Shown: positions 7,224-44,155, numbered from the stretch's first letter. The stretch: 64,000 bases of DNA from Tubulanus polymorphus (GCF_964204645.1 NC_134028.1:11889263-11953262); one strand, 5' to 3'. Translations and numbers: made by a program. Notes: a model not told the origin generated them from the letters alone.

Positions 7224-7526
7224 TGTTTTTTGCGGAGTTTGTCGATTATACGCGGTCTCCATATCACTTCACCTTCATTTTTGCCGTCAGAAAAAAACGT
7301 TTAATTTTTCGCGAAATAGAAGGGGTAACAAATTGGTTGATATTTCCGGCATCTACACCTAATAGGCTACACATTTCCGTAAACAACGCTAAAACCGGCC
7401 AAGAAATACAGATTCTAGCAACGTGCTTATGACGCAAGCCCAAATGATATTTTAGCCAATAACGCCCTGATGCGCGAATCGCTAGCGCCATCATAACATT
7501 TCAAGAGAACGTGCCTATGAAACGTT
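7224..7526 (+). repeat. Local duplicate of the Polinton target sequence (empty site)
   Basis: Matches 7691-7863 joined to 24327-24427, and 24685-24715. It contains a single AACGCT (aaacaacgctaaaaccgg) with no insertion. Confidence 0.9.
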
Positions 7527-7668
7527 AGTAATAGGGAATATGGGGGTTCAGATCAAAGGTCGAGTTCATAAAAATGAAAAATAAATTCTCGCACACTCGA
7601 ATTTATTTTTCATTTTTATGAATTCGCCCTCCCAACCTTTAATCTGAACCCCCATATTCCCTATTACT
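7527..7668. repeat. Solo fold-back hairpin with Polinton-like AGTAAT...ATTACT ends
   Basis: Arms agtaatagggaatatgggggttcagat / atctgaacccccatattccctattact, plus an inner palindrome ttcataaaaatgaaaaataaatt / aatttatttttcatttttatgaa. The symmetry extends into the flanks (7512-7683). Confidence 0.9.
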
Positions 7669-7863
7669 AACGTTTCATAGGCATTATTAAATGTTTTTTG
7701 CGGAGTTTGTCGATTATACGCGCTCTCCATATCATATCACTTCACCTTCATTTTTGCCGTCAGAAAAAAACGTTCAATTTTTCGCGAAATAGAAGGGGTA
7801 ACAAATTGGTTGATATTTCCGGCATCTACACCTAATAGGCTACACATTTCCGTAAACAACGCT

Positions 7864-7984
7864 AGTAATTAGAATATGTGGCTTTCAGATCAGAGGACGA
7901 GAGGACGAGACACCACTCATCACCACAAGTAATTTTTTTTTTCCTACTCATCACCACAAGTAATTTTTTTTCCTAATAAATGGG
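7864..7984 (+). repeat. Left TIR of copy 1, with an internal tandem duplication of actcatcaccacaagtaat(T)n-cct
   Basis: Reverse complement of 24231-24320 apart from the duplication. Runs into the ATG of the 108-aa gene. Confidence 0.95.
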
Positions 7985-8306
7985 AGATAGAAAAGCATTC
8001 TTAGCAACAATAAATAACAGAATAAAACCAGCAAAAAAACAATTTGAAATAAAAAAGTTAGTTGATGTTACAAAAGAAATTGAACATAAAATATTGAAAT
8101 TAGAAAAGATAAAAACTAAATATGGAGAGAAAGTATCAGCTAATTTAAGCTACTGTAATGTTAGTACATCGCGAGAATTTAAAGTGTTTTTACCCGATAA
8201 ATGGGTTTCATTGAGTACGGAGGAATTGAAAGATTTAGTAGGATTTAAAATAATATATCATGGGAAAAATGAAGACGGTCATCATGATTTAGAAATTGTT
8301 GATTAA
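7980..8306 (+). CDS. 108-aa Polinton protein (TKYG motif); function unknown, possibly small nucleic-acid-binding
   Basis: TAAATG start inside the TIR. Homologous pseudogenes at 49390-49712, 32064-32337 and 54070-55940. Confidence 0.75.
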   Translation: MGDRKAFLATINNRIKPAKKQFEIKKLVDVTKEIEHKILKLEKIKTKYGEKVSANLSYCNVSTSREFKVFLPDKWVSLSTEELKDLVGFKIIYHGKNEDGHHDLEIVD

Positions 8307-8471
8307 ATTTTAAAAAAAATAAATTAATAAAAATAATGAATATCTAGAATCCGAAATGACTTATCTGGACAATTTAATTGCTCCACAGTGATAGACAAAA
8401 GTAGTGAGATGGTGCCGTATGGCACCCACATGGTGATATTCAATTATTTTTTTTGCTTTTTTTCTAAAATA

Positions 8472-8840
8472 TTAATCCATTTTTTTTATTATCAATTTTG
8501 GAATTTCAGAAGTACTTTCATTTTTGATAGCAGTTGGTTCAGAATTACTAATATCATGAATTTTATTTGATTTCTTATACCAATTACACCCAATCAAAAT
8601 GAATACAATTACAAATCCAACTGTAAAATATAAATATTTATCAAATATTCTATTATCAGAAGGAGTAGAAATAACAATATTTTCACCATTTTTATTAACA
8701 TTTTTATTACTTATTTTTTCTTTTACAGCTTTTTTATATTCTTGTGATTTAATTCCTAATTGTCGAGACCATTCAATTTGTTTCTGAGTTCTCGGTTTTT
8801 TCTTCACAGTTAATTCCTTCACTTCTTCCACCTCGCTCAT
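8472..8840 (-). CDS. 122-aa basic protein with one transmembrane helix
   Basis: TAAATG start; KKKPRTQKQ basic patch; hydrophobic YLYFTVGFVIVFILIGC; intact paralogue at 50807-51175. Confidence 0.8.
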   Translation of the reverse strand: MSEVEEVKELTVKKKPRTQKQIEWSRQLGIKSQEYKKAVKEKISNKNVNKNGENIVISTPSDNRIFDKYLYFTVGFVIVFILIGCNWYKKSNKIHDISNSEPTAIKNESTSEIPKLIIKKMD

Positions 8841-9378
8841 TTATTATAGAAATATTTTTACTTTCAATATTTGAAAATGTTATAACCCCAGTTGATAATA
8901 ATGTCATAAATCCACCTAATTGAAATGATAAATATCCAATCCATTTATTTAATTCAGTCATAACTAAATAGTCATTTTTTAAATCGGAATATAATCTATT
9001 TTCATTTTCAATTGGTAGTATATAATTACATAATTTACTATAACCTTTTACTACATTTTCTGATATCGCGTCATTAATTCTAGCTGTTCTCGCGGCTTCA
9101 TAAATCTTAAATAATCTAATAATTTCATCTGATTTCATTGTATCTAATTCATTATAAGTTAAATTTTTACCGACAAAATTTTTACATTTTCCAGATGCTA
9201 TTAATATTTCTAATTGATGTTTACAATAAAGATAATATTCATAATTATTATTTGTTGTAACATTATTTAAAGCACCATCATCTGGAGTTAATTTTGTTTC
9301 TGTTATTCCTAAATCATCTAAAGTTTTTTCAATTGGAACATCACCATTTTTAGATTTTATTTTCTTTTCACCTCCCAT
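8773..9378 (-). CDS. 201-aa conserved Polinton protein with a hydrophobic C-terminal segment
   Basis: TAAATG start; nearly identical paralogue at 51108-51713; frameshifted copy at 43382-44000. Confidence 0.8.
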   Translation of the reverse strand: MGGEKKIKSKNGDVPIEKTLDDLGITETKLTPDDGALNNVTTNNNYEYYLYCKHQLEILIASGKCKNFVGKNLTYNELDTMKSDEIIRLFKIYEAARTARINDAISENVVKGYSKLCNYILPIENENRLYSDLKNDYLVMTELNKWIGYLSFQLGGFMTLLSTGVITFSNIESKNISIINERGGRSEGINCEEKTENSETN

Positions 9379-9410
9379 TTATATAACAAAAAAATTAATT
9401 ATGTGATGTT

Positions 9411-9672
9411 GCAACTAGAATTCAACTAGAATGTAACTAGAATTCAACTAGATTAACAAGCTAGTTGAAATATTGTTGTTTTTGTTTATTTCTTATTAAA
9501 TGTAGTTGATTTTTGTTCCAACTACTAACAACTAGAATTCAACTAGAATGTAACTAGAATTAAACTAGATTAACAAGCTAGTTAAAATATTGTTAAATCT
9601 ATTTGATTTTTGTTACAACTACTAATAACTAGAATTCAACTAGAATTCAACTAGATTAACAAACTAATTGAA
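9411..9672. repeat. Internal array of 11-bp (C/T)AACTAGAAT(T/G) units in three blocks
   Basis: Directly visible. The same intergenic position carries two-block versions at 43193-43352 and 51744-51921. Confidence 0.92.
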
Positions 9673-9673
9673 T

Positions 9674-10282
9674 TTAAATAAATTCATATTTAAATGGGTG
9701 TTGTAATCTAAATAGTAATTTTGATCTTTTAATATTTTTCAACTCATCCATATATTCATTATGTAAATCATGTGGAATAATATCATTTTCCTCAAGTGCA
9801 TTTTTCATTGATTTTCTATCTTTATTGTAGAATAAAACTAGAAATCTAATGTTTTCTCTAAAGTCTTTAACAATTGAATTATATTTTTGATTTAAAACCC
9901 AAGTTGTCATCCCAAAATGTCTCCCAGAGAAAGCTAAATAGCATAACTCACTTTCTCTAACTTTTGAATCATGTAGATTAGCACAATCATCTATAATGAA
10001 TAATGTATTTGATCCTTTATAAATATCAATTGCTATTTTTATACAATTATCTAAATTTTCTTTTACTGTTTTAGGATCTAATATAATAAATTTATTATTC
10101 CTAGTAATATTTCTATCATAAGTTTGATTAAATTCATATGTTGGACAAAATAATACTATAATATCAAAATAGTTTTTGTAAACAGTTTCTAATAAATTTA
10201 ATATAAAATAAGTTTTTCCACAATTTGTTACACCAGAAATTAACATATTATGAGGCTCAAATATGAATAATTCCTTATTCAT
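9674..10282 (-). CDS. A32/FtsK-like DNA-packaging ATPase
   Basis: Walker A GVTNCGKT, Walker B LFIIDD, and a GRH...Q motif typical of A32-like ATPases. Confidence 0.92.
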   Translation of the reverse strand: MNKELFIFEPHNMLISGVTNCGKTYFILNLLETVYKNYFDIIVLFCPTYEFNQTYDRNITRNNKFIILDPKTVKENLDNCIKIAIDIYKGSNTLFIIDDCANLHDSKVRESELCYLAFSGRHFGMTTWVLNQKYNSIVKDFRENIRFLVLFYNKDRKSMKNALEENDIIPHDLHNEYMDELKNIKRSKLLFRLQHPFKYEFI

Positions 10283-11410
10283 TTATATATTTTTAATTTT
10301 ACTTGATAATATCCATTCATTAAATTTATCTGGCCATCCAACCCATTTTACTAAAGAATATTTTTTTCTTTTAATAGTTTTTGTTTTTAATACTTTTTCA
10401 ATTTTATATTCTTGTTCTAGATTTTCAGTAGTTAAACTTAATTCTTCTTCGTAAAAGTAGCCATCAACTTCTTCACCATCTAAATCTTCTAATTTATAGA
10501 CATATGGTTTTGTTGTTATTACCTTTTTTATTTTATATATTTCCCTAGTAAAATTTCGATCGTATCCTTTGTCAAATATCTTTTTATACTTAGATATTCT
10601 AACATTTTGACCAACTTTAAATTTAGGTTCACCAAAATCATCTATAAGAAATGCTCCATATAAATTATTCCAAACAATTTCAGCATTTTCAGGTTTTCTA
10701 GCATCAATAGGTTTCATTCCAATAGAAGAATGATAAGAATTATTATATCCTTCTATCAATTTTGGTAAAACATCAATCCATTTAAAAGTATTATTTGCTG
10801 TAAAATATTTCCACATTCTTGTTCTTAATGTTCTATTAAATCGTTCAACAACTGCTGCTTTTTTATCTGATTTTGTTGAAAAATATTTAATATTATGATT
10901 ATCTAAGAGTTCATGAACAAGTGAATTATCAAATTCTTTTCCATCATCAAATTGTATTTTTTCTGGTTTTAGTTTATCATCCGAAAGAAATTTTCTTAAA
11001 ACATTTGATGTTTGTACAGCATCTTTTCTATAAAGTGGGAAACTCCATACATAACGACTAAAAATATCAATTATATTCAATAACCACCAATAATCATCAT
11101 TATCTTTCTTAACATTTTTCATATCAATTAAATCTCCTTGCCACTGTTGATCTACATAACTTACCATAGTTTTACGAGTTTTATATTTTCTAACAATTTT
11201 TTTATGTGTTGTATATGTTGGTTGTTCTAACATAAATTCATTTATATCTTTATATTTAACTAAATTTTGTGGGATTATCTTATCTAATTTATCTTGTTTT
11301 ACTTTACGCCATATATTTTTAGTAGAAGAATAAGCAACCGAACTCTCAGGGTTGTAATATAAATTTCTTAAATATTGTTCTTTAGTATTAGGAGTTTTTT
11401 TACCACCCAT
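10283..11410 (-). CDS. Retroviral-type (RVE) integrase with C-terminal chromodomain
   Basis: DDE triad in WQGDLID / IQFDDGKEF / VVERFNRT; chromodomain SLVKWVGWPDKFNEWI. Confidence 0.95.
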   Translation of the reverse strand: MGGKKTPNTKEQYLRNLYYNPESSVAYSSTKNIWRKVKQDKLDKIIPQNLVKYKDINEFMLEQPTYTTHKKIVRKYKTRKTMVSYVDQQWQGDLIDMKNVKKDNDDYWWLLNIIDIFSRYVWSFPLYRKDAVQTSNVLRKFLSDDKLKPEKIQFDDGKEFDNSLVHELLDNHNIKYFSTKSDKKAAVVERFNRTLRTRMWKYFTANNTFKWIDVLPKLIEGYNNSYHSSIGMKPIDARKPENAEIVWNNLYGAFLIDDFGEPKFKVGQNVRISKYKKIFDKGYDRNFTREIYKIKKVITTKPYVYKLEDLDGEEVDGYFYEEELSLTTENLEQEYKIEKVLKTKTIKRKKYSLVKWVGWPDKFNEWILSSKIKNI

Positions 11411-11440
11411 TTATATATCCTTAATTTTAACTTTATATTT

Positions 11441-12688
11441 CTAATATTGAATACTATCTAATTGTGAATTTACAATATTTAATTGTGCGTCAGATATAAT
11501 ATAAATGTGCATTTTAAAATTTTTGATTCCTTTATTCTTTTTCATGAATAATTGTATTCCATCTTTAGTGTTTTGTAGTTTTTTTCCAGAACCATGTAAT
11601 GAATTATCTTCAGTTGTTCTAAAATCTAACCATAATGCATATTTATTACCGGTATAATAATCAATTTGATTAATATTACAATTTTCAGATGATTTTACTT
11701 TTTCATTCATAAAATGTTTTTTAATTTCTACCCATTGATCTATCATTCTCATTCCTTGACAAAATATTTTATTTGCTATTCCTTCGATAGTTATTTCTAC
11801 TTTTGTTATTTCAGGATTATAATAATTGTCAACATTTATTGCGCCATTAGTATACGTTCCAATGGTAAAAAATATTAATATACCTTTAATAGATCTTCTA
11901 GGGAAGTTAATATTCTCATTAATTATTTCATCATTTGCATTAATAGTTACAGTTTTAAATTTATCAATATAATCATATAATAATGAAAATCCTTGATTGT
12001 ATTGAGTTTGAATTATGCTAGCAATATTTTCATTAGTTACTGTGTTATATTCTAAACATATATTCGATAATTTATAACTCATATCTTTATTAACGCTAGA
12101 TAATACAATTTCATTTACAGGAGCAAATGTTATCTCAAATATAATATCTTCTTGAATTGCGTATTTATATAAAGGTGCATTATTATTTATCAATTCAAAG
12201 TCTAATGGAATTTTATATTTGCTTCCATATATACTTTTTATCAATTTATCTACATCATTAGTTAATATTGCATTATTAGCTTCTGATCTTAATTTATTTT
12301 GGTTTTCTGATTGAATTCCTTGAAATATCATATTATTTCTATTTTCTTTAGTTAACCATAAATCTTTATAATGCATAAATAAATTATAATCATCTAATGA
12401 GAAAACTGTTTCTGGACCAATCTTTATTGTTAATTTTTTAATCAAATATCTTCCAACATTATCAACAACATAATTATTATTATTACCGATTACTTTTATA
12501 TCAGCTGATAAATAAATACTGTTTGGAACATAAAAAGTATTTTGTGTTAATCTAGGAATTCTAACATATAAAGTTTCATCAGGATTAATATTAGAAGGGT
12601 TATGAGTAATTATATGATGTGATCTTTCTGCTTTAATAGCATTAGATATTCTATGATTCTTCGAAGGACTTATATAACTCCCACTCAT
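11441..12688 (-). CDS. Putative double jelly-roll major capsid protein
   Basis: 415 aa, beta-strand-rich, next to the integrase and ATPase, and retained in all copies. The fold is inferred from context and resemblance, not computed. Confidence 0.72.
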   Translation of the reverse strand: MSGSYISPSKNHRISNAIKAERSHHIITHNPSNINPDETLYVRIPRLTQNTFYVPNSIYLSADIKVIGNNNNYVVDNVGRYLIKKLTIKIGPETVFSLDDYNLFMHYKDLWLTKENRNNMIFQGIQSENQNKLRSEANNAILTNDVDKLIKSIYGSKYKIPLDFELINNNAPLYKYAIQEDIIFEITFAPVNEIVLSSVNKDMSYKLSNICLEYNTVTNENIASIIQTQYNQGFSLLYDYIDKFKTVTINANDEIINENINFPRRSIKGILIFFTIGTYTNGAINVDNYYNPEITKVEITIEGIANKIFCQGMRMIDQWVEIKKHFMNEKVKSSENCNINQIDYYTGNKYALWLDFRTTEDNSLHGSGKKLQNTKDGIQLFMKKNKGIKNFKMHIYIISDAQLNIVNSQLDSIQY

Positions 12689-12712
12689 TTATTTAACAAA
12701 AAAATTAATTAT

Positions 12713-14149
12713 TTATTTTTTTGATATCATATTTACTAAACCAAAAATAATAGCACTTACAACTGTAATTAAAAATAAAATAATATGTTCAGCAGCAAAG
12801 TTAATAATGTTTCCTGCAGATTTCAATATAAAACCAACAATTGAAGCAATAATTCCTGGTAATGCTGCAGCAGATTTTTTAGATAGTTCCCATAAATATT
12901 TTGCTAATTTTTTTAAACCATCCTTAACTTTATCTTGTATAGAATTATTACCTGGAGGTTTATCTGGTTTGTTAGGAGTGGGAGTAGGAGTAGATTTCAA
13001 AGCATTTGATATTGCTAAACCAATTGTTGTAAATAACATAGTTACAGCTGTTAGAATTGAAAGAATTGTTATTCCTTCTAATTTAAATAATAACTTTATT
13101 CTATCTTTCAATAATATTTCAGAATTTGGTTTAATTAACAAATCTTTAAAAATAACTTTTAATCTATTAATATTATAATCATATGATTTTAACAATAATT
13201 TAATTTCTTCTTTTTGTAATTCTACGTTATATTCTAAATCATCTTTTTCTTTTTCTAAACGTAATTCTTTTTGCCTATATTCTATTTCATCAATTACTTG
13301 ATGATCTAAATCAGACTTTAGTTGTTCTATTTCTTTATTTTTATCAGTTAATTCTTTTTCTAAAGTTCTAATTTTAAAATCTCTTATACTTTTATTATGT
13401 GCAATTTTATCAGATGCAAGTCTTATACTAATAATTTCTCTAATTGCTTTATCAGAAAATATATCTAAATCTTCTAATTCTTGATCTGTTGCATCAAGTA
13501 ATCCATTCGGTAAAAGTTTTTCAATTGGAACTTTATTTGATTTAAGTTTACTATTTTTGGAAGTTATATTCTGTTCAGAAGTTGTTTCTGTTTCTGATTT
13601 CTTTTTGATTATTTCAAATAATTCATTAATTCTTTGTTTAAATACATCTATATTATCATCTATTTCTTTTTGTGTAACATCAGTTATTTCATTACTATTA
13701 CTTATTATTTTAATTCTATCTGGTTTTAATTTTTCTAAAGTTGATTCTGATAATATTTTATTTTTATTATTTTTATAAGTGATATCAATATAATAATCAC
13801 CTTTCAAACGATAATAACATTTACCATTATTTAAAAATTTTAATTGATCTGCTAAAAGTGCAACGTCTTCATCATTTATGTTAAAATTAGATTTTTCAAT
13901 TAAATCTTCTAATTTAGGTATTTTGTTTAAATTATCTAAATCTTGTTTTACTAAATCTGGGTCTAAACTTTCAGGATTTAATTGTGATTCAGCATTTTTA
14001 ATATAATCAGGCATATTCAAATTATTATTATATTCTGGTTCATTACCATCATTAAAACTTGTTTCATCAAAATCAGGTGGTTGTTCATCAGTTATACCAG
14101 GTTCATCAAAAGGATCCATTCAAATATCTTCTACACCTTCTACATCCAT
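12713..14149 (-). CDS. About 478-aa coiled-coil, multi-TM membrane protein; TGA at codon 10 in this copy (ORF track starts at 14119)
   Basis: TAAATG start at 14149 reads MDVEGVEDI*M, whereas copy 3 (38789) reads MDVEGGEDIGM. Acidic N-terminus, heptad-rich middle, TM, PTPTP linker and two further hydrophobic helices. Confidence 0.78.
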
Positions 14150-14166
14150 TTATATAATAAAAAAAA

Positions 14167-15555
14167 TTAAAATTTAAAATATAATATTCCTCCTATAACA
14201 ATTCCTATACAAGTTATAGCTAATTTAGTATTTTCATGGAATTTATTATCATCATTTAGTTTAATTATATCATGTTGAATTTTATCAGTTCTATTATTTT
14301 CTGATGTATTGTAATCTTTTATTTTAGAATCATTATTTAATTTAATATTCTTAGTTTTAGTTTCTGTTGATTGAATATGTTTTTTATTTTTTTCACCTTC
14401 CATTAATTTTGGAGCAGTGATAATCTTTTTATTTATATCATTCAATCCAAATGAATTATTTATTGTTGCAGTTTTAATTAGATTATTATAACCAATTATA
14501 TTTCCCATCTTCAATACTAAATCATTAGAAATAATTAATAGATTAGGGCCTATACAATAATTTAATCTAATATGTGATTTATCTAAATAATTTTGATATC
14601 TTATAATGTTTTCTGGAATCGATCTATTTTTATCATTATGTATGGAATCTTCAAATAATACTTTGAATTGTTTTTGTGTATCGAATGATGTATTCAAATT
14701 TCCAATTATCGGTGATCTTGTTTCAACTTGTGATCCTAGAATACAAATCAAATAAGTTCTAACAGATTGATTTATTCTTTCTATACCTGATTTAGTAAAA
14801 CCTTCACTATTTTCTAAAATAAAATAAACCCAACCATTATTGTTTTCTTGTTTTAAATTATCATAAAATTTTGGTAATTTATTGAAATTTAATGTTTCTA
14901 AATCCTTTGTTTCTATTTTACCATAACCTAATTTTTTATTATAGATATTATAAAAACTATTAGATGGTATGGGAAGTGCACAATATTCTGCAATCTTTCT
15001 AGGGCAAGGAAGTGATCTTATTGTTCCAATTTTTATTCTAAAATCAGAATTATTTATATCTATATTAAATTCATTGCAAATTTTATAAAACTTTGATAAA
15101 TTAATATTATTATCTAATTCTTTGAAATACCTAGATCCTGGTAAAGCGCACTCTAATTCATTTAATATTATTCTGATTTGAAAGTATGTATGAAATCTAA
15201 ATAAACTTTGAATTAATTTATATTTAGAATTATTTAAATGATCATTCCAACTAATTCCACATCCTGTTGTTGCACAATAAACAGCAAAATTTAATTGATT
15301 CTGCCAATACTTCATATTAGATTTTAATAACCATTGTTTTTCATCTTTCAATTTTTTAAAATTAATCAAATATACATGAAATATATTTTCCATCTTTGCA
15401 TTAAAATTATTAGTTTCAGTAACATAAATATATAAATCAATTAATGAATCTAAAACTTCATTTCTATATGTAATATCTTTATTAAAATCTATTGCTGGAA
15501 TATTATATTTAATTGATTTATTATATTGGAAAGCTTTTGGAAAACTATCTACCAT
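14167..15555 (-). CDS. 462-aa protein with C-terminal membrane anchor
   Basis: TAAATG start; C-terminal LAITCIGIVIGGILYF; intact paralogue at 37384-38772. Confidence 0.85.
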   Translation of the reverse strand: MVDSFPKAFQYNKSIKYNIPAIDFNKDITYRNEVLDSLIDLYIYVTETNNFNAKMENIFHVYLINFKKLKDEKQWLLKSNMKYWQNQLNFAVYCATTGCGISWNDHLNNSKYKLIQSLFRFHTYFQIRIILNELECALPGSRYFKELDNNINLSKFYKICNEFNIDINNSDFRIKIGTIRSLPCPRKIAEYCALPIPSNSFYNIYNKKLGYGKIETKDLETLNFNKLPKFYDNLKQENNNGWVYFILENSEGFTKSGIERINQSVRTYLICILGSQVETRSPIIGNLNTSFDTQKQFKVLFEDSIHNDKNRSIPENIIRYQNYLDKSHIRLNYCIGPNLLIISNDLVLKMGNIIGYNNLIKTATINNSFGLNDINKKIITAPKLMEGEKNKKHIQSTETKTKNIKLNNDSKIKDYNTSENNRTDKIQHDIIKLNDDNKFHENTKLAITCIGIVIGGILYFKF

Positions 15556-15571
15556 TTATATAATTAAAAAA

Positions 15572-16006
15572 TTAATAATTTATTAATTCTTTTAATAATT
15601 TATCTTGTTCTTCAACTGTTATATGACCATTTAAACTTATTATATAATCTAGTGTGTTCTTTAATTTATTAATTTCTTTTATATTAGTTTTAATTTTTAC
15701 TTTATTACTTTTTATATTTAATTTTGAACTTATACCGGTTAAAACACTTGAACTTAATCCTAATACACCAATTGATATAGCTAAAGGTGTTAATGGACTG
15801 AATATTGCTAAAAATGTTATTACAGAACTAATTGTAACCGAACCACTTATAATAAGATAATATATAATTTTACTTTTTAAATATTTTTTCTTTTTAACTT
15901 TTAAGTCACTTTCAAATTCTAATATTTGTTTTTCTAAATATGTTTTTAATTTAGTTTTATTTATATCATGAGGAATAATATCAATACTATCAACTTTATC
16001 TTCCAT
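15572..16006 (-). CDS. 144-aa two-TM membrane protein
   Basis: Hydrophobic hairpin IIYYLIISGSVTISSVITFLAIF...LAISIGVLGL; TAAATG start. Confidence 0.8.
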   Translation of the reverse strand: MEDKVDSIDIIPHDINKTKLKTYLEKQILEFESDLKVKKKKYLKSKIIYYLIISGSVTISSVITFLAIFSPLTPLAISIGVLGLSSSVLTGISSKLNIKSNKVKIKTNIKEINKLKNTLDYIISLNGHITVEEQDKLLKELINY

Positions 16007-16025
16007 TTATTTAGAATAAAAATTA

Positions 16026-16448
16026 CTAATTAGTAAACTTATAAGCAACAAATATAACAATAACTGTTCCACCTAAAATCCAAATTATTTCATATTTCTG
16101 TTGTTCTTTACTTGGGGTATAATAATCTGATAATTTAGGTTTGTATAGATGTAATTTTTCTTTATTGGTTACTGCGTTATATAAACTCATTGCATCATCA
16201 ACTGATTGAAAATCTCTATGTGAAATCTTCTGATCATATAATTCTTTATTGATGTAATCCATATAGTTTTGTCTCTTTTCTCTATATTCTTCTGCAGCTT
16301 TATTGTATTTCTCTAACGCTAAGTTATGTCTTCTTTGTTCTCCTAATGAACTATTTTTATCAATATGTTTAAATAAATAACCACCACCAGTAAATGCTAA
16401 AGCGTTAACAATTGCTGATCCTATAATAGTTATAATTGCAGAAGCCAT
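16026..16448 (-). CDS. 140-aa membrane protein (hydrophobic N- and C-termini)
   Basis: MASAIITIIGSAIVNALAFTGGGYLF ... IIWILGGTVIVIFVAY; TAAATG start. Confidence 0.8.
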   Translation of the reverse strand: MASAIITIIGSAIVNALAFTGGGYLFKHIDKNSSLGEQRRHNLALEKYNKAAEEYREKRQNYMDYINKELYDQKISHRDFQSVDDAMSLYNAVTNKEKLHLYKPKLSDYYTPSKEQQKYEIIWILGGTVIVIFVAYKFTN

Positions 16449-16472
16449 TTATTTAACAAAAAAATTATGCAT

Positions 16473-16694
16473 TTATATGGGAGGAATATATTTTTGTTTT
16501 TCCAAATAATCAATTGTTAAATTAGATAAAGTAACTGCTAATGTTAACTTTAAAATATCATTGATATCAAATCTATCAACATTAACACTTCCCATTTTGA
16601 ATACTTTTTTTAATACCATTGAATAACCAACAGTTCCAACTGATAGTAAGGCGCCATTATATAATCCAGTTATTATCCACTTATTATCACTCAT
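16473..16694 (-). CDS. 73-aa small hydrophobic protein
   Basis: Identical in amino-acid sequence to 33461-33682 despite synonymous changes; TAAATG start. Confidence 0.85.
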   Translation of the reverse strand: MSDNKWIITGLYNGALLSVGTVGYSMVLKKVFKMGSVNVDRFDINDILKLTLAVTLSNLTIDYLEKQKYIPPI

Positions 16695-16697
16695 TTA

Positions 16698-17036
16698 TTA
16701 ATCAAAAAAATTACTATCATCAAAATATTTAGTTAACTTATTTATGATTAATTCAACATTTATTTCATTACTAGTTTTATGATTATCATATATTTTGGAT
16801 AATATGTTTTTGATATCTTCAATAATTCCATCTTCATTTAATTCATAATATTCTAAAGGTGATTTAATTAAATCAATTACTTTTTCTATATTATACTTTT
16901 CTTTATCAATCATTGACGCATTGTTAAATGATTTACTTTTTATATCAGTAATTACATCATTTAGTTTAATTCTCATTTCTTTACCATGTTTAAAATCAAA
17001 CCCAAAACATATACTCGGTCCAACAGTTATATTCAT
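16698..17036 (-). CDS. 112-aa hypothetical protein
   Basis: TAAATG start; homologues at 33121-33444 and 36478-36831. Confidence 0.78.
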   Translation of the reverse strand: MNITVGPSICFGFDFKHGKEMRIKLNDVITDIKSKSFNNASMIDKEKYNIEKVIDLIKSPLEYYELNEDGIIEDIKNILSKIYDNHKTSNEINVELIINKLTKYFDDSNFFD

Positions 17037-17052
17037 TTATATAATGAAAAAA

Positions 17053-17811
17053 TTACTCTTTACATCTTATAACTAATTCATAAATTACAGGGAAATTATT
17101 TAAATCAATTAAGTATCCATTATGATTTCTAATTTCTAATCTAAAATTATTAAAACGAGGAATGCATGGTTTGAAATCACATTCTGTTAAATTATAATTT
17201 ATTTGCGTTCCAAATTGTTTAACATTCTTCAATGGTAAAATGTTTAGTAAACCAGAATTACATGTTGTATCTTTAGTTGCTTCAAATGTTTTTGTAGGAT
17301 CGATTAAATTGCAATAAATATAAAAATGTGTAAAAGGTATTATATTTGAATTACCGTCTACGTTTCCTGTAACAATTTGTGGTTTAATTCCTAACAGTTT
17401 AGCTAAAGGTTTCCTTACCATAAATGCATGTTTGCTTTCATCATCTAACTTTATTTTAATTTTATCAGAACTATCACTTTTTATAAATCTAATTGAAAAT
17501 TTATATTCACTTCCAAGTTTTAAACGAGCTCTTTTATTAATTTCTTGGGCTAATGTTTCTAAATTATATAATCCTGGTTTTAACATTAGATAAAACCATT
17601 TATTTTTATTTTTCATATGAATTGCAAAACCTCTATGTTCGAAAGTTTTATCCGATATATTATAAAAAGAATTACATAAACTTATATTTACTAATTTCAA
17701 ATCAACGCAATTCTTAAATTCTCTATCTAATTGTACTAATAAATTATGAGATTTATAATTTGTAAGTTTTCTAGAATCAATAAATATTCTGTATTCTTTT
17801 AATTCTACCAT
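17053..17811 (-). CDS. Putative minor capsid (penton, single jelly-roll) protein
   Basis: N-terminal IFIDSR, G-x-Y (PGLYN), FYIYCNLI and C-terminal IDLNNFPVIYEL resemble Polinton/virophage penton motifs. Confidence 0.68.
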   Translation of the reverse strand: MVELKEYRIFIDSRKLTNYKSHNLLVQLDREFKNCVDLKLVNISLCNSFYNISDKTFEHRGFAIHMKNKNKWFYLMLKPGLYNLETLAQEINKRARLKLGSEYKFSIRFIKSDSSDKIKIKLDDESKHAFMVRKPLAKLLGIKPQIVTGNVDGNSNIIPFTHFYIYCNLIDPTKTFEATKDTTCNSGLLNILPLKNVKQFGTQINYNLTECDFKPCIPRFNNFRLEIRNHNGYLIDLNNFPVIYELVIRCKE

Positions 17812-17879
17812 TATTTATAACATAAAAAAATTACCGCTCATCACTAAAAATTAATTTTAATAAAATTTTTCCTTAATAA

Positions 17880-19175
17880 ATGGATGAGAAGATAGCATGC
17901 GAAATTTGTGGTGAACTTCTAAGAAAAAGTAATATGGCTCGACATATGAAAAAACATGATGAAAACTATAAACCCCCTAAAATAAACTGTCCAAATTGTA
18001 ATAAAACATTCTCTAGAAATTATTTCAAAAAACATTCAGAGAAGTGTAGAATTAATAGCGCAACGGCTAATGTTGATAGTAATTCTGTTGAAGTTGAACC
18101 TGAAGTTATTTGGAAAAGACCTTTCTTATTCTATGATAAGGATAATATAAAAGATCATTTCTGTGAGCCTTGTCGAATAAAATATAGCCCTGAAAATATA
18201 GAAGATTGGGAGAATCATCAATTTCGTAAAGCACATATAGATAAATTTTCTAATAAATTTGAAACTGAATTCAATGAAAGAAAAAATAATTTATTAGAAA
18301 AAATAAAATATGAGAAAACGTTACCAGATAATAAAGAAACAGTTGAAAAGTTAGAAAAACAATATAATGAATTAACAAGAAAAACATATTATTGTAAATA
18401 TTGTAAATTGATTATTACAACAAGTAATTCAAATCTACATAATAGAACAATAAAACATAAAGAAAACGTAAGAAAATACCAAGAGCTTAATGAAGATCTA
18501 TTACCTAGAAATTATAAACAAAAATGCCCACAATGTATTTATGCGACTTTAAGGCAAGAAGGTACTGTGTTATTTTGTGTTGAATGTGGATGGCAAAAGA
18601 ATTTATTAGGTGAAGAAAAAACTAGAAATTTTCTCATAGATCCAAAATTAAATTATCTTAATGAAATTTTTAAAATATTTTCCATGGAAGATCATACACC
18701 AGAATATATGCAATGGCTTGAAAAAATGAAAATAATAGAAAATAAAAATGGTGAAATAACTAAAAAAGATATTATAAAAACAATTATTCCACCAACATTT
18801 AACACAAAACAAAAGAAAATGTATTTATATTTATTATTTAACGATTATTATGAAAAACCTAAATTAACAGAAGATATGGAAAATATAAAAAAAATATTTA
18901 AACAAATATTAATGTATTATTTGGAAAATAGAATAACAGATTCAATAAATTATGAATTCTTTTTAAATAAGATTGTAAATTATTTAAACCTAGATATTAT
19001 AATTCCATTTGATGAATTAACAAACAAAAAGAAACAAAGAGAGCGAGATGAAATGTGGAACAAGATAGAACTTTATTTAAATGAGAAAAATGGAATGGAA
19101 GAAGAACCTGAACAATTAAATGAAAATGAAGAAGCCAATAGTGATTTCGAGTTTGATGATATAGATCCATTTTAA
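17880..19175 (+). CDS. 431-aa multi-zinc-finger protein
   Basis: CEIC...H..KH, CPNC...H..KC, CEPC...H...H, CKYC...H...H and a CPQC...CVEC ribbon. Its stop overlaps the pPolB stop on a shared TTAA (19172-19175). Confidence 0.85.
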   Translation: MDEKIACEICGELLRKSNMARHMKKHDENYKPPKINCPNCNKTFSRNYFKKHSEKCRINSATANVDSNSVEVEPEVIWKRPFLFYDKDNIKDHFCEPCRIKYSPENIEDWENHQFRKAHIDKFSNKFETEFNERKNNLLEKIKYEKTLPDNKETVEKLEKQYNELTRKTYYCKYCKLIITTSNSNLHNRTIKHKENVRKYQELNEDLLPRNYKQKCPQCIYATLRQEGTVLFCVECGWQKNLLGEEKTRNFLIDPKLNYLNEIFKIFSMEDHTPEYMQWLEKMKIIENKNGEITKKDIIKTIIPPTFNTKQKKMYLYLLFNDYYEKPKLTEDMENIKKIFKQILMYYLENRITDSINYEFFLNKIVNYLNLDIIIPFDELTNKKKQRERDEMWNKIELYLNEKNGMEEEPEQLNENEEANSDFEFDDIDPF

Positions 19176-22100
19176 TAACCATAAGGTAATGTTTTTATAC
19201 CATCATCTAAAATATGCCTTTTATCATCAAATGGATTTAAACTAGTTTTTTCAACTTCATTAATGTACATCTCATGATCTTCTGATCTTAAACAATTCAT
19301 TTTGTTTTTCATTACAATTGATTTATATAAACACTTTATATAATCTTGAAATTCTATATGTTTATCAACCACATGTTTTGTTATTCCTTTTAACTTTTTA
19401 GCTTCATGATCTTTTGTTCTGTAACTATACATTTTACTTCTTATCCCAACAAATTCAATCATTTCATCACCTTCTAATTCATCTTTAAATTTACCAGGAA
19501 TCTTTTTATTATCATTGCTAAATAGTTCATGATCTTTAGGATAATTGCTAAAATCAAAATGATGTTTTAATGTTTTTAAGTCTTTTGTTATATCATTTGT
19601 CTTGATTTTTAGTATGTAACTGTCAGTATTTTTTTGGATTAATGGGAACCCAGAATTGAATGTTCCATCATCTGTTGATAAATCATAAACATAGTCAGTT
19701 GGGTTATATATTTCAAATAAATCTTTAACTTCTTCTGTTAATTCTTTTTCTACATGCCTTAAATTAAAACAATTTGGTTTAGATTTAATTAATTCTATAT
19801 TCATATTAAATCCTAATGAACTGCATAACACATTTAACCCTGATATAGCAACTTTTCCTTTCTGTGCAAAGGTTATCGTTTTATCCTTTATAAATTTTTT
19901 AGTACCATCGGCTGCGTAGAACCCAATGAAGAACCATTTTCTAAGATTATATTCTGAATTTAATATATAATCTGGTACTATTTTTTCTTTAGTTGAAGTA
20001 TTACTTTTCACTATTGCATGAATATAGAATTCATCATTATATTCTATAGCAAAATCTTTAGGATTATTTACAAGTATTCTATAAACTGCTGATGATTTCA
20101 TAACATCCATGATTCTAAATGTTTTATGTGAATAAACTTCTTCACAGAATTTCTTAATTCTTTCTAATAATTTTAAGTCTTGATTGCATAAATACCAACA
20201 ATATTTATTACCCCAAACATATTTATACACACCTGCTGAACCATCACCCATGAAAAATCCTTTGATAAAATATTCTTTTTCTTCTAATGTTTCAGGTTCT
20301 ATATTATAAATATTATCAATTATTTCATCAAATGACATATGATTCATTCTTTGGAAAAATCTTTTATGTAATAATTCATCTCCAATTTTTATATCAGTTG
20401 GTTTTATTTCATCACCATTTCGTTTAATTAAACTATGGTCTTCTGTAACATCTACGAACCCTAATTTAGTTCTAACTCTATAGATTTTCTTATTTGTTTT
20501 ATGTCTAATAATATTCTTTAATTTTTTCCATCCATTTCTTGTCCAAACATCCATTAATCCATTTATTTGTATTAGTTCTTTTTCACCATATGAAATATAA
20601 GATTTATTTTGATTAGGAATTATTTCTGAAATTCTTCTAATTAATATTTGGTTATTGTATTTTAATAATATTGGGGTGTCAGCTGTTACAGAATCAAAAT
20701 ATAATATTTCTATATGTTTTTCTCCAAAAAGTGGTTGTAAAACATTATAATAAAAATCATACATTAATAATTTTGATATTTCTAAAACTGTTGAACCAAT
20801 GAAAATGGGTTTGTTAAATTTCATGGACGTTCTTTTTAATTTTACTGCTGTTAAATAATCTTCAAATCTTTTATTTCCTAAATGTCTAAGACTTGATTGT
20901 AAATGTCTTAATCTTTCAGAATTATTTACTAATTCAATGTCGTTTCTATTACGAATATTCTCACAAGTTTTTCCATAAAAACTATTGTTCATCAATTTGA
21001 AAAAATCTTTTTCAAAATCTGTTTTTGATATGGTTCTCTGTTGAGTATTGAAATCTATATATTTTTCTAACCACTTCGATTGATTAAATTCAATATATCT
21101 ATGTACTTTCTTTAATTTCATTCCTTGTTTTAGATAAAATTTTAACATTCTATAATGAACAATATAATTGTATTTATTATTTTGAGTAAGTATTAATTTT
21201 TCTGTAAAAACATGATCTTTCGGTTTTATTTTCTTCTGGTATTCACTTAAATAACTATCATCTACAGTTAAATGTTCTGGGCAATAAGGTAAGTTTCTTG
21301 TTTTAAACTTTATATTTTCAGGATATTCTAAATCAACTACAAAGAAATAACCAATTGGTGCTTCATCTTTTAAACTAATAATTGCGCTTTCCCAATCAGT
21401 TTTATCACCATTTTCAACTTCTGTTAATATAAAATTTTTATATGGTTGAGGTTGCATCATTGCCCAACCATATAAATTATTGGCGTCAATATATAATAAT
21501 TTATATTCATCATTTGCTTTAAAATACCTATCTCCCATAACACCACTAATTCCACCTCTAATTGATTTTTCAAATAATAAAACCATATCTGGTTCTTTTA
21601 ATAAATCTAATTCTACATTTGTATATTTTAAACCACATTGCCAGGTTAAACCAGGACTAGAGTAGCAATAACAAGGATCAACGTTAAAATGATTCAAATT
21701 AACTTCTCTAAATTTTTCAAATATGTCAGCCAATATCATAACATCTGATTTTAAATATAAATCAACTAATTCACCATGATTTTTCATCTTAAAATGGTTC
21801 CAAATATTTAATGTTCTATTAAACACTTCGTCTTTCACATACTCCTCTTTTAATTTATCATAAAATTGATCTTTTAATAATTCTGTTACATTAAAATCAT
21901 CATGTGTTTTATAAAATGAATAAGGAATTGCGCCTTTATATCTTAATAATTTAAAATCTTGGTCATTTGGATAATAATATCGAGTTATAATAAAATCATT
22001 ATCAACTAAACTTTTTGATAAATTATCTAATGAACTTGCTAGAAATCTATAAGAATCTAAAAATCTAATGCAACCAAATTGAAATGAAATATAATTTTCA

Positions 22101-33460: not shown

Positions 33461-33682
33461 ATGAGTGATAATAAGTGGATAATAACTGGTTTATATAATG
33501 GAGCATTGCTATCAGTGGGAACTGTTGGTTATTCAATGGTATTGAAAAAAGTATTCAAAATGGGAAGTGTTAATGTTGATAGATTTGATATAAATGATAT
33601 CTTAAAATTAACATTAGCAGTAACTTTATCTAATTTAACTATTGATTATTTAGAAAAACAAAAATATATTCCTCCCATATAA
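33461..33682 (+). CDS. 73-aa small hydrophobic protein (copy 2)
   Basis: Identical protein to 16473-16694. Confidence 0.8.
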   Translation: MSDNKWIITGLYNGALLSVGTVGYSMVLKKVFKMGSVNVDRFDINDILKLTLAVTLSNLTIDYLEKQKYIPPI

Positions 33683-33706
33683 ATGCATATTTTTTTTGCT
33701 AAATAA

Positions 33707-36376
33707 ATGGCTTCTGCAATTATAACTATTATAGGATCGGCAATTGTTAACGCTTTAGCATTTACTGGTGGTGGATATTTCTTTAAGCATATTGATAAAA
33801 ATGGATCATTATCATAACAAAAAAGACAATTTGGCCTTAGAAAAATATAATAAAGCTGCAGAAGAATATAGAGAAAAGAGACAAAATTATATGGATTACA
33901 TCCATAAAGAATCATATGATCTGAAAATTTCTCATAGAGATTTTCAATCAGTCGATGATGCAATGAGTTTATATAACACAGTAACAAATAAAAAAAATTA
34001 CATCTATATAAACCTAAATTATCAGATAATTATACACCAAGTAAAGAACAACAAAAATATGAAATAATATGGATTTTAGGTGGAACAGTTATTGTTATAT
34101 TTGTAGCATATAAATTTACTAATTAATTATATATTACTTTTTGCTAAATAAATGGATGATAAAATTGATGGTGTTAATATTATTCCTCATGATATAAATA
34201 AAACTAAATTAAAAATATATTTGGAAAAACAAATATTATAATTTGAAAGGGACTTAAAGATAAAAAAGAAAAAATATTTAAAAACTAAAATTATATATTA
34301 TTTGATTATGAGTGGTTCGGTTACAATTAGTTCTGTAATAACATTTCTAGCAATATTCAGTCCATTAACACCTTTAACTATATCAATTGGCGTGTTAGGA
34401 TTAAGTTCAAGTGTATTAACCGGCATAAGTTCGAAATTAAATATAAAAAGTAATAAAGAAAAAATAAAATCTTATATAAAAGAAATTAATAAATTAAAAG
34501 ATACATTAGATTATATAATAAGTTTAAATGGTAATATAACAGTTGAAGAACAGGATAAATTATTAAAAGAATTAATAAATTATTAATTTTTTTATTATAT
34601 AAATTGGGTTTCCAAAAGCTTTCCAATATAATAAATCAATTGAATATAATATTCCTGCAATAGATTTTAATAAATATATTACATATAAAAATTTTGTTTT
34701 AAATTCATTAATTTATCTAGAAATTTATGTTACTGAAACACAGTTTTTTATTTCTAAAATGGAAAATATATCTAATACATATGAAGTTACTTTTACTCGA
34801 GATGAATATCATATATATAAAGTAAAATCTAATATGAAATATTGGCAGAATCAATTAAATTTTGCTGTTTATTGTGCAACAACTGGCTGTGGTATAAGTT
34901 GGAATAATCATTTAAATAACTTAGATAAAAATTTGAATTATTCTGATTTAAAATTCATCCATACAATATTTAGATTTCACACATATTTTCAAATCAGAAC
35001 TATATAAAATGAATTAGAATGTCCTTTGCCCGGATCTTAATATTTTAAAGAATTGGATAATAATATTAATCTATCTAAGTTTTATAAAATATGTAATGAA
35101 TTTAATATAAATATTAATTCCGATTTTAGAGCGCATGGTAAATCGCAAGGTATTGGTGAACAGTATGAAATAAAAAGAATTGATTATATGCATAGAATTG
35201 GAGCTTATCATAATTAGAAAGATTGATAATAATAATGGTTGGATTAATTTCATTTTAGAAAAAAGTGAAGGTTCACTAAATCAGGTATACAAAGAATAAA
35301 TCAATCTATTAGAACTTATTTAATTTGTATTCTAGGTGCACAGGTTGAAACAAGATCACCAATAGTTGGAAATGATAATACTTCATTTGATACACAAAAA
35401 CAATTCAAAGTATTATTTAAAGATTCCATTCATAATGATAAAAATAGATCGATTCCAGAAAATATAGTTAGGTACCAAAATTATTTAGATAAATCACATA
35501 TTAGATTAAATTATTGTATTGGTCCCAATTTATAAATCATTTCTAATGATTTAGTTTTAAAAATGGGAAATATAATTGGTTATAATAATCTAATTAAAAC
35601 TGCAACAATAAATAATTCATTTGGATTAAATGATATAAATAAAAAGATTTTTACTGCTCCAAAATTAATGGAAGGTGAAAAAAATAAAAAACATATTCAA
35701 TCAACAGAAACTAAAATTGAGAATATTAAATTGGATTATGATTCTAAAATACATCAGAAACTATAAAAACTGATATTATTCAACATGAAATAATTAAAAC
35801 TAATAATGATAATAAATCACATGAAAATACCAAATTAGCTATAACTTGTATAGGAATTGTAATAGGAGGAATATTATATTTTTAATTTCAATTTTTATAA
35901 GATATAAATGGATGTAGAAGGTGGAGAAGCTTATGAAATGGGAGAAATGGGAGAAATGGGAAATAATAATGATGGGTATATTGATGATGCTGAAACTAAT
36001 ATAGTTAATGATAATGAAACAGCATATAGTTCTAATTTAGCAGATAGCAAAATATCCATGGGAACTATCTAAAAAATCTGCTGCAGCATTACCCGGAGTT
36101 ATAGCAACAATTGTTGGTTTTGTTTTAAAATCTGCCGGGAATATTATTAACTTTGCTGCTGAACATATTATTTTATTTTTAATTACAGTTGTAAGTGAAA
36201 TTATTTTTGGATTAGTGAATATGATCAAAAATAAATAATCAATTTTTTCTCTTAAATAAATGAGTTGGAGTTACATAAATCTTTCTAAGAATTCTAGAAT
36301 ATCTAATGCAATTAAAGCAGAAAGATATCATCATATAATTACACATAATCCTTCTAATATTAATCCCGTTGAAACT
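33707..36376 (+). pseudogene. Degraded 140-aa, 144-aa, 462-aa, coiled-coil and 5' MCP genes (copy 2)
   Basis: Collinear with 12600-16448 of copy 1, with stops, frameshifts and a large internal deletion near 36040. Confidence 0.85.
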
Positions 36377-36477
36377 AGAAATAAGAAATCATAATGGATA
36401 TTTCATTGATTTGAATAACTTTCCTGTGATATATGAATTAGTTATAAGATGTAGAGAGTAGTTTTTTCATTATATAA

Positions 36478-36831
36478 ATGAATATAACTGTTGGACCGAG
36501 TATATGTTTTGGATTTGATTTTAAACGTGAGAAAGAAATGAAATTTAACATCAATGATGTAATTACACAAATCAAAAATATTGCATTTTCTAATGAAACA
36601 ACATTTAAGTATGAAAAAACAATAGATAAAGAAACTTTTAATGTAGAAAAGATTATTAATTTAATTAGAGAATCTTTAAGATTTTATGAATTAGATGAAG
36701 ATTTTATCATCGATGATATTAAAAAAATAATAATTGAAATATATACAAATGAAACTAGTAATGAAATAAATGTTGAAATAATCATCACTAAGATAACTAA
36801 ATATTTTGAAGATAGTAATTTTTTTGATTAA
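36478..36831 (+). CDS. 117-aa homologue of the 112-aa gene
   Basis: MNITVGPSICFGFDFK...DSNFFD with a divergent middle. Confidence 0.75.
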   Translation: MNITVGPSICFGFDFKREKEMKFNINDVITQIKNIAFSNETTFKYEKTIDKETFNVEKIINLIRESLRFYELDEDFIIDDIKKIIIEIYTNETSNEINVEIIITKITKYFEDSNFFD

Positions 36832-37383
36832 TAAATGAGTGATAATAAGTGGATAATAACTGGATTATATAATGGCGCATTACTATCAGTTGGAACTGTT
36901 GGTTATTCAATGGTATTAAAAAAAGTATTCAAAATGGGAAGTGTTAATGTTGATAGATTTGATATAAATGATATCTTAAAATTAACCTTAGCAGTTACTT
37001 TATCTAATTTAATCTAAAGTGACTTAAAGATAAAAAAGAAAAAATATTTAAAAAGTAAAATTATTTATATATTATATATTATTTGATTATAAGTGGTTCG
37101 GTTACAATTAGTTCTGTAATAACATTTCTAGCAATATTCAGTCCATTAACACCTTTAGCTATATAAATTGGTGTATTAGGATTAAGTTCAAGTGTATTAA
37201 CTGGTATAAGTTCAAAATTAAATATAAAAAGTAATAAAGAAAAAATTAAAACTAATATAAAAGAAATTGATAAATTAAAGAATACACTAGATTATATAAT
37301 AAGTTTAAATGGTCATATAACAGTTGAAGAACAAGATAAATTATTAAAAGAATTAATAAATTATTAATTTTTTTATTATATAA

Positions 37384-38772: not shown

Positions 38773-38788
38773 TTTTTTTATTATATAA

Positions 38789-40245: not shown

Positions 40246-40265
40246 TTAATTTATTTGTTAAATAA

Positions 40266-41504: not shown

Positions 41505-41535
41505 GAAATATAAAGTTAAAATTAACGATATATAA

Positions 41536-43194: not shown

Positions 43195-43381
43195 ATTCAA
43201 CTAGCTTGTTAATCTAGTTGAATTCTAGTTACATTCTAGTTGAATTCTAGTTATTGGTAGTTGTAACAAAAATCAACTAGATTTAACAATATTTTAACTA
43301 GCTTGTTAATCTAGTTTAGTTCTAGTTACATTCTAGTTGAATTCTAGTTGCAACATCACAACTAATTTTTTTGTTATATAA

Positions 43382-44000: not shown

Positions 44001-44155
44001 ATTTCAAATTGTTTTTTTGCTGGTTTAAATCTGTTATTTATTGTTGCTAAGAATGCTTTTCTATCTCCCATTTATTAGGGAAAAAAATTACTTGTGGTGA
44101 TGAGTGGTGTCTCGACCTTCGACCTCTGATCTGAAAGCCTACTTTTCCAATTACT

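Follow-up and report, generated by a model that had tools for sequence, protein, structure and literature searches.

In the genome of Tubulanus polymorphus, a Polinton-type element carries a run of genes, most of them for proteins with hydrophobic segments, between its likely major capsid protein (MCP) gene and its likely penton gene, and no gene of the adenain type. Do these genes encode components of a membrane within the virus particle, and does the element manage without a maturation protease? We analysed a stretch of 64,000 nucleotides (GCF_964204645.1 NC_134028.1:11889263-11953262; hereafter the window, from whose first letter all positions are counted) that holds a nearly intact copy of the element, copy A. 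A preliminary description of the window had proposed a block of membrane-protein genes and possibly a membrane-containing polintovirus. Its observation largely holds, and the block is real and conserved. We give a probability of about 0.55 to the reading that the block and a separate gene for a 122-aa protein, p122, encode membrane proteins that a lineage of polinton-like viruses (PLVs) has kept, and that these are most likely built into a lipid membrane under the capsid shell.

Five consecutive minus-strand open reading frames (ORFs) fill exactly positions 12713-16694 and encode proteins of 468, 462, 144, 140 and 73 aa (p468, p462, p144, p140 and p73). This is the arrangement that the preliminary description had given; its figure of 478 aa for the first protein is the native length, which is 468 in copy A. 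The block is flanked by the likely MCP (11441-12688) and the likely penton (17053-17811), and a 112-aa ORF also lies between these two. A transmembrane (TM)-like segment was defined as a Kyte-Doolittle 19-mer mean of at least 1.6. By this measure p468 (12713-14149 with its native start) has three C-terminal hydrophobic segments (residues ~347-371, 416-436 and 445-465), p462 (14167-15555) has a single segment at its C-terminal extremity (444-462), p144 (15572-16006) forms a two-helix hairpin (47-93), and p140 (16026-16448) has an N-terminal (1-23) and a C-terminal (118-139) segment. Outside the block, p122 (8472-8840, minus strand) has one segment (65-88) together with a lysine-rich N-terminal part. 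The remaining 10 of the 15 ORFs all stayed below 1.6, including p73 (16473-16694; maximum 1.16), a small conserved protein with two weakly hydrophobic helices, and p201 (8773-9378, minus strand; maximum 1.36), a conserved helical protein whose gene adjoins the ATPase gene. DNA polymerase B (PolB), the MCP, the integrase, the ATPase and the penton of copy A were likewise without a TM-like segment. TM-like segments had been ascribed to seven proteins; five of the seven carry clear ones (468/478, 462, 144, 140 and 122 aa), and the 73-aa and 201-aa proteins do not.

Each maximum was also compared with those of shuffles within the same protein. The observed value was reached by 0 of 500 shuffles for p122, 2 for p468, 5 for p140, 41 for p144, 104 for p462, 99 for p201 and 381 for p73. 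Because the score of p462 lies within those of its own shuffles, the support for its anchor comes from the conserved position of the segment and not from the score. None of the membrane proteins begins like a signal peptide, with the possible exception of p140; p468 starts with an acidic stretch and p462 with a polar one.

The block is kept in distant relatives. A metagenome scan started from p462 gave 343 pattern matches and 177 confirmed relatives, and 80 loci were kept; most of these are short, so that the absence of a gene there means little. With blastp, p468 was found around p462 in 39 of the 80 loci, the ATPase in 31, p201 in 28, the MCP in 24, p140 and p73 in 17 each, the integrase in 15 and PolB in 9. 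Iterated hidden Markov model (HMM) searches of the same loci recovered p468 in 43, the penton in 40, a p144-like two-helix protein in 20 and a p122-like one-helix protein in 13. Long loci keep a gene order: two-helix protein, fibre-like protein, penton / p462 / p468, then MCP, ATPase, p201, one-helix protein, p73, p140, integrase / PolB. The loci span 20-59% GC, and TM segments persist in those of 49-54% GC, such as L019 (53%) and L057 (54%). None of the relatives' 82 core proteins has such a segment (MCP 0/25, ATPase 0/32, integrase 0/16, PolB 0/9). Since the same block recurs in relatives of 20-59% GC, it is not an artefact of AT-richness. Scans of IMG/VR with the p462, MCP and p468 profiles gave pattern matches, among which no relative was confirmed.

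The p462 protein has no N-terminal hydrophobic segment. Its conserved, mostly helical domain (residues ~30-345) is followed by a variable linker and the anchor (444-462), which sits after the linker throughout the family. A database search returned 108 homologues at E <= 0.01. In 77 of them a tail segment ends at most eight residues from the C terminus, and most of the others either have glycine-rich hydrophobic tails just below the threshold or are truncated. An alignment of 47 p462 sequences contains 16 invariant columns, including Gln87, Cys99, His122, Arg260 and Ser264. An AlphaFold model built from the 47 sequences (mean pLDDT 68, pTM 0.68, 149 residues below 50) shows a confident, mostly helical core (~30-175 and 235-345) plus the C-terminal helix, with Cys99 in a loop between helices and His122 in the middle of a helix.

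We found no known relative for this family. Pfam searches with the 47 members gave no family, just two single chance rows; a PDB profile search gave no sequence relative at E <= 1; and a look-alike search of the Atlas gave no usable match. Foldseek searches of the model against PDB and BFVD returned nothing at E <= 1e-3, and VIA-align against 48,161 chains reached a best Z of 3.3 with no recognisable fold, fusogen or other. The model is partly of low confidence, so these null results are not proof of a new fold. Longer or fused forms of p462 were not found, which is weak evidence. As judged by these searches, p462 is a large family with neither a Pfam model nor a known fold match. An intact p462 gene is also present in the second copy of the element, copy B (37384-38772, plus strand), with 60 nucleotide and 26 amino acid differences from that of copy A. 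The two genes differ by dN 0.025 and dS 0.136, and the resulting dN/dS of 0.19 indicates that p462 is under purifying selection and that the copies diverged as working genes. The preliminary description had named the 462-aa and the coiled-coil proteins as candidates for entry or fusion; the structural comparisons of p462 lend this no support. That p462 founds a widespread tail-anchored virion family with a new fold, acting as the membrane-capsid tether or the fusion machine of a PolB- and integrase-bearing lineage, is a tentative proposal that we hold to be rather unlikely in its full form. It would mean that small polinton-type viruses retain an inner membrane studded with proteins, as tectiviruses and giant viruses do, and assemble without any maturation protease.

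The p468 protein combines an acidic N terminus, a coiled-coil middle and a three-helix membrane module. Its motif-linked ATG lies at 14149 and opens a frame of 478 codons. In copy A, codon 10 of this frame (14120-14122) is a TGA, against GGA in copy B (38816-38818); the in-frame ATG that comes directly after it, at 14119, gives the 468-aa ORF. The N-terminal half is variable and acidic, and the middle matches coiled coils only. Conservation centres on the membrane module, which carries LF(R/K)xxG(I/L)TI and ALPGIIGS motifs. At least one TM segment is present in 43 of 46 family members, and two to three in 37 of 46. A PDB profile search with the family gave nothing significant, only coiled-coil rows at E >= 0.037.

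The two-helix hairpin p144 is likely SLATT-like, as judged by profile matches that stay below the curated cut-off of 26.5 bits. SLATT_fungal was matched in this way by 4 of the 14 family members scanned, over profile positions 7-103 of 121, with E values of 0.034 for the window protein and 1.3e-3, 2.5e-4 and 4e-3 for relatives. The p140 protein opens with a hydrophobic helix rich in glycine and closes with a membrane helix, and between them lie a charged helical region and an LSDFYTPS motif; 26 of the 30 members of its HMM family have at least one TM segment, and some members drift into a p144-like family. In the p73 family, 5 of 21 members reach the TM threshold. p201 has a weakly hydrophobic C-terminal helix, and a subset of relatives has an additional N-terminal membrane helix.

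Does the element encode a maturation protease? No peptidase family was found by Pfam in the 15 ORFs at E <= 0.1 or in four pieces of PolB at E <= 1, and none of 49 ORFs of at least 45 aa in other frames matched any Pfam family at E <= 0.01. Twenty-one unexplained ORFs of the relatives also gave no peptidase family. The absence of an adenain/Ulp1 ORF, claimed in the preliminary description, is thus borne out: Pfam showed no match to the C5/C48 families (proteins of about 200 aa with the order His-Asp/Glu-Gln-Cys) in the window ORFs in any frame, within the limited sensitivity of HMMs for diverged proteases and with structures predicted for only some of the ORFs. Two candidates for a hidden protease were rejected. 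p201 is the only conserved soluble protein of adenain size, and it has no conserved Cys or His; it is therefore not a protease. The second candidate was a family of ~250-425 aa whose gene adjoins that of the penton in 15 loci of relatives, including L019:1846-2679, L049:941-2218 and L057:910-1788. These proteins start with MSI(F/Y)G, carry repeats of the SGDTMTGDL and DAATKxYVD types and, in one member, match Phage_T7_tail (1e-11); the family is a phage-like fibre and not a protease.

A cysteine-protease domain of another kind was found within PolB. Residues 280-500 were aligned with 33 representatives of 3,731 hits at E <= 1e-3. Across the 34 sequences, His416 never varies and Cys316 is kept in at least 90%. 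The AlphaFold2 model of this domain, D2 (aa ~301-426; 22958-23335, minus strand), has a pLDDT of 86.3. Foldseek alone was weak (best E 0.064, to OTUD1), with OTU domains as its top rows; when VIA-align was applied to the Foldseek matches, all 50 of the 50 listed rows were OTU, the best being 4hxd_B (Z 7.9, root-mean-square deviation 3.1, 101 aligned residues). According to the model, PolB carries an OTU-fold domain in which the predicted catalytic Cys and His are kept. The search for a hidden protease thus found no adenain but did find a vOTU-like domain in PolB, and the element cannot be called free of proteases. A conserved C2HC zinc finger (C440, C443, H456, C460) follows the domain.

A shared motif marks the starts of the block genes. 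The pattern TAATTTTT-N4-9-ATAAATG occurs 17 times in the window (0.08 expected), always within 7961-24254 (copy A) or 33442-49043 (the other copies). Each of the 10 matches in copy A ends on the ATG of a gene, namely p108, p201, MCP, p468, p462, p144, p140, p73, p112 and PolB; the integrase, the ATPase, p122 and zf431, a zinc-finger protein, have no such motif before them. Other lineages have shared upstream motifs of their own before the membrane genes and the MCP. In its T-run and TAAATG form the motif resembles poxvirus late promoters.

To which kind of virus does this block belong? Copy A extends over 16,457 bp (7864-24320), densely coding, with ~23% GC against ~37% GC in the flanks. It is bounded by perfect terminal inverted repeats (TIRs) of 77 nt (7864-7940 and 24244-24320), has 5'-AG...CT-3' tips and is flanked on both sides by the 6-bp target-site duplication (TSD) AACGCT (7858-7863 and 24321-24326). 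Its integrase matches rve (E 2.5e-10; 40.9 bits, cut-off 32.6), and its PolB matches DNA_pol_B_2 (E 6.4e-20; 71.9 bits, cut-off 25.8). By termini and by replication and integration genes, the element is a Polinton. The window holds two further copies of ~95% identity: copy B (~28000-44100), which is inverted, broken and internally duplicated, and a partial third copy (~49400-53700). The duplication within copy B covers the p73-to-p462 segment (33100-36240 against 36460-38820, 75-96% identity). In a DNA run of the same organism, 8,595 contig pieces matched 6.4 kb of the element at 90-100% identity, indicating that the element family is highly repeated in the host genome.

The morphogenetic genes point to PLVs. 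The 202-aa packaging ATPase of the A32/FtsK type (9674-10282, minus strand) matches Pox_A32 at E 3.5e-13, above the cut-off. The 415-aa protein (11441-12688, minus strand) is likely a double-jelly-roll (DJR) MCP, as suggested by its family: members share 30-75% identity among relatives, and 12 of 15 match the Capsid_N profile of nucleocytoplasmic large DNA viruses (NCLDVs) below the cut-off (best E 2.3e-4). The 252-aa protein (17053-17811, minus strand) is likely the penton, or minor capsid protein, judging from its place and from look-alikes proposed by the Atlas language model, a lead only: viral proteins of ~250 aa that include the Sputnik V18/19 penton cluster (0.97). DUF5901 was matched by one of 30 members of the penton family. 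PDB profile searches with the MCP, penton and p201 families gave no significant match. Taken with the absence of the protease, these genes would form a PLV-type module, and the element is best read as a PLV-type Polinton.

For such an element, the lack of adenain is the expected state. PLVs lack a maturation protease as a rule (PMC4642659; 10.64898/2026.06.19.733378), the protease being a core gene in only one major group, group 1 (10.64898/2026.06.19.733378), and the majority of varidnavirians are stated to possess a lipid membrane (PMC13598248). The preliminary description had set the element against canonical Polintons, which it took to encode a maturation protease and few membrane proteins; in view of these reports (PMC4642659, PMC13598248) that contrast was overstated. 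A survey of Polintons gives an identifiable maturation protease in 74% of them (Krupovic et al. 2014, PMC4028283).

PLV-type capsid genes together with PolB and an rve integrase are known from algae, amoebae and oomycetes (Yutin et al. 2015, PMC4642659; Bellas and Sommaruga 2021, PMC7805220). The PLVs described there in a 'Polinton configuration', the Monoraphidium neglectum element (PMC4642659) and VC20 with the amoeba and oomycete elements (PMC7805220), resemble the window element in their size of 15-20 kb, their TIRs, PolB and rve integrase and, probably, their module of MCP, penton and A32 ATPase without a maturation protease. The MCP of VC20 is reported to match an iridovirus MCP by HHpred (PMC7805220), and the MCP of the window lineage is likewise faintly similar to NCLDV capsid proteins. 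With the canonical animal Polintons or Mavericks (Polintoviricetes), the element shares a protein-primed PolB with a vOTU-like domain, the rve integrase, the A32 ATPase, TIRs, a 6-bp TSD and the insertion of multiple copies into a eukaryotic genome; it differs from them in having the conserved membrane-protein block and no adenain-type protease.

The block also has counterparts in viruses with an inner membrane. Tectiviridae (PRD1) and NCLDVs (Paramecium bursaria chlorella virus 1, iridoviruses, African swine fever virus) share with the element an A32/FtsK-type ATPase, several small membrane proteins encoded among the structural genes and, probably, a DJR-type module. The likeness of the membrane proteins lies in architecture and gene context only, with no sequence or fold match to the window proteins. 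P16 of PRD1 fastens the vertex to the membrane, and the entry-fusion proteins of African swine fever virus and poxviruses are tail-anchored, with their bulk on the cytosolic side. SLATT proteins of cryptophyte PLVs are a proposed pore for endosomal escape (PMC12220804); p144 has the same small two-helix hairpin, although its family stays below the curated cut-off. For PolB, a vOTU-like D2 in protein-primed polymerases has been described and proposed to act in terminal-protein release (Krupovic et al. 2024, PMC11161782). The window domain has the same position ahead of the exonuclease domain, the OTU fold and the conserved Cys and His, with no notable difference from the published domain, except that the window PolB additionally carries an intein. 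In our literature search, a conserved membrane-protein set or the p462 family was not found described for these viruses, SLATT apart, though supplementary gene tables may list some of these proteins. The word 'membrane' does not occur in the 2026 PLV framework preprint (10.64898/2026.06.19.733378).

How might these proteins act in a particle? A real and conserved membrane block without an adenain-like gene makes an inner membrane a fair inference, so that of the inner membrane or envelope suggested in the preliminary description the former is the more probable; the envelope is disfavoured by the lack of signal peptides. That lack points to insertion from the cytosol, and the membrane proteins would enter a host-derived, probably endoplasmic reticulum-type, membrane from that side. 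The capsid would then assemble on this membrane, as in PRD1-type phages and NCLDVs, and such assembly would need no adenovirus-type maturation protease. With its large conserved domain turned towards cytosol and capsid, p462 would link shell and membrane as a tether; alternatively, p462 might act on the endosome membrane after uncoating. A second structural component of the membrane would be p468, with its coiled coil and three helices, and the genome would be released through a pore made by the SLATT-like p144. The vOTU-like domain of PolB would serve replication, through the terminal-protein release proposed earlier (PMC11161782), and not capsid maturation.

The best surviving alternative is that the membrane proteins are not virion components and serve at host membranes, as anchors of replication or assembly sites, as viroporins, in egress or in superinfection exclusion. 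We consider this a real but clearly less probable explanation. Topology by itself cannot separate virion from non-virion membrane proteins, and two-TM proteins of the SLATT type, which p144 resembles below the threshold, are effectors in many non-virion settings. The start motif would not tell the two apart either; it also precedes PolB and p108 and so carries no late-class signal. Against these points stand six or seven such genes inside the morphogenetic module, among those for penton, MCP and ATPase, their place kept across distant relatives, and viruses of 16 kb would rarely devote a third of their coding capacity to non-structural membrane proteins.

A second alternative makes p462 a membrane-held enzyme with Cys99 and His122 as catalytic residues, which would replace the maturation protease or modify lipids. 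The invariance of Cys99, His122, Gln87, Arg260 and Ser264 in the 47 sequences, a conservation as high as that of the MCP and the ATPase, and the lack of a match to any structural-protein fold would suit an enzyme. However, no protease or hydrolase family or fold matched p462 either, and a Cys in a loop with a His in mid-helix is not a papain-like arrangement in the model. We regard this explanation as improbable. Slightly less probable still is an outer envelope with p462, p468 or both as fusogen. The idea draws on the coiled-coil middle of p468 in a protein that also has TM helices and on the C-terminal anchor of p462; nematode Mavericks reportedly carry a herpesvirus-type fusogen, as Widen and co-workers are said to have described in 2023. 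Without signal peptides, however, the large domains of p462 and p468 would face the cytosol and not the exterior, no fusogen fold matched the p462 model, and DJR-capsid viruses with A32 ATPases typically carry their membrane inside. Finally, the notion that the hydrophobic stretches are by-products of 21-24% GC, with its Ile, Phe and Leu codons, or that the small ORFs are not genes, has extreme AT-richness and the shuffle-like scores of p462, p144, p201 and p73 in its favour, and can be set aside as next to impossible, since conservation refutes an AT-bias artefact for p468, p462, p144, p140 and p122, the same segments occupy the same positions in relatives of 49-54% GC, no such segment occurs in the element's own PolB, MCP, integrase or ATPase, and the start motif (17 against 0.08 expected) and the p462 dN/dS of 0.19 mark working genes.

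Several points weigh against placing these proteins in a membrane under the capsid. The inner membrane of this lineage is a reasonable inference from gene content alone, and the likely MCP and penton are assigned from sub-threshold matches and context. The hydropathy score of p462 is not above its own shuffles (104/500), its conservation is as strong as that of the MCP, and its invariant Cys99 and His122 could point to an enzyme. p73 and p201 are weakly hydrophobic and are not clear membrane proteins. The start motif, found before PolB and p108 as well, is no mark of a 'late/structural' class. The window element lacks the phage-like fibre gene of its relatives and has an unrelated 112-aa ORF at that place. 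Copy A, with its premature TGA in p468, stands among decayed copies and may have lost the capacity to produce particles.

The other genes of copy A complete the picture of the element. The 375-aa integrase (10283-11410, minus strand) combines rve with a chromodomain (Chromo 8.2e-4, below the cut-off). The protein-primed PolB of 1687 aa (19172-24235, minus strand) contains a 355-aa intein with a LAGLIDADG endonuclease in its motif C (aa 1182-1536; 19628-20692, minus strand), recognised by its junctions and profiles. The junctions read Ser1 ... Asn, then Thr+1, and removal of the intein would restore YFDTDS. Intein_splicing scored just below its cut-off (E 1.9e-8, 34.7 bits against 35.8), and LAGLIDADG_3 scored 23.0 against 22.5; the intein is absent from the relatives' PolBs (1139-1211 aa). 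zf431 (17880-19175, plus strand; zf-U1 E 1e-6) is a possible transcription factor, and a relative of it was found only in L002. The unassigned 112-aa ORF p112 (16698-17036, minus strand) has relatives only in the three closest relatives of the element.

Gene content also varies among the relatives. In L036, a 1130-aa superfamily 1 (SF1) helicase protein (9967-13359; AAA_30, 6.2e-11) stands in place of PolB, an exchange that fits the replication-module swaps reported for PLVs. The closest relative, L002, has a deoxynucleoside kinase gene (10340-10981; dNK, 1.7e-31) that is absent from the window element. Pox_VLTF3 was matched in one relative, below the threshold (E 6.4e-4; 19.9 bits, cut-off 25). 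Beyond the ends of copy A, short palindromic elements that resemble miniature inverted-repeat transposable elements lie at 7520-7680 and 24690-24900, and their ends resemble the Polinton TIR. The latter encloses a ~100-nt piece of small-subunit rRNA, which is the sole Rfam match in the window (24625-24853, 56.9 bits). An (AT)n and (ACAT)n microsatellite array at 830-2100 contains spurious ORFs of 390-458 aa in several frames.

To a kind of virus already known, the analysis contributes a module that had not been annotated and a new protein family of considerable size. The papers on Polintons and PLVs consulted here annotate genes for capsid, penton, ATPase and replication and leave most of the small ORFs in between without a name. 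In this branch of viruses, a membrane and the missing protease are both expected, so the advance is one of annotation, incremental and not an anomaly. The p462, p468 and p140 proteins are concrete targets for a first structural or proteomic study of such a particle. If the proteins are in the particle, the lineage would keep an inner membrane like that of tectiviruses and giant viruses, which would bear on the origin of giant viruses from small ancestors of the polinton type and on why PLVs can dispense with the adenovirus-type protease.

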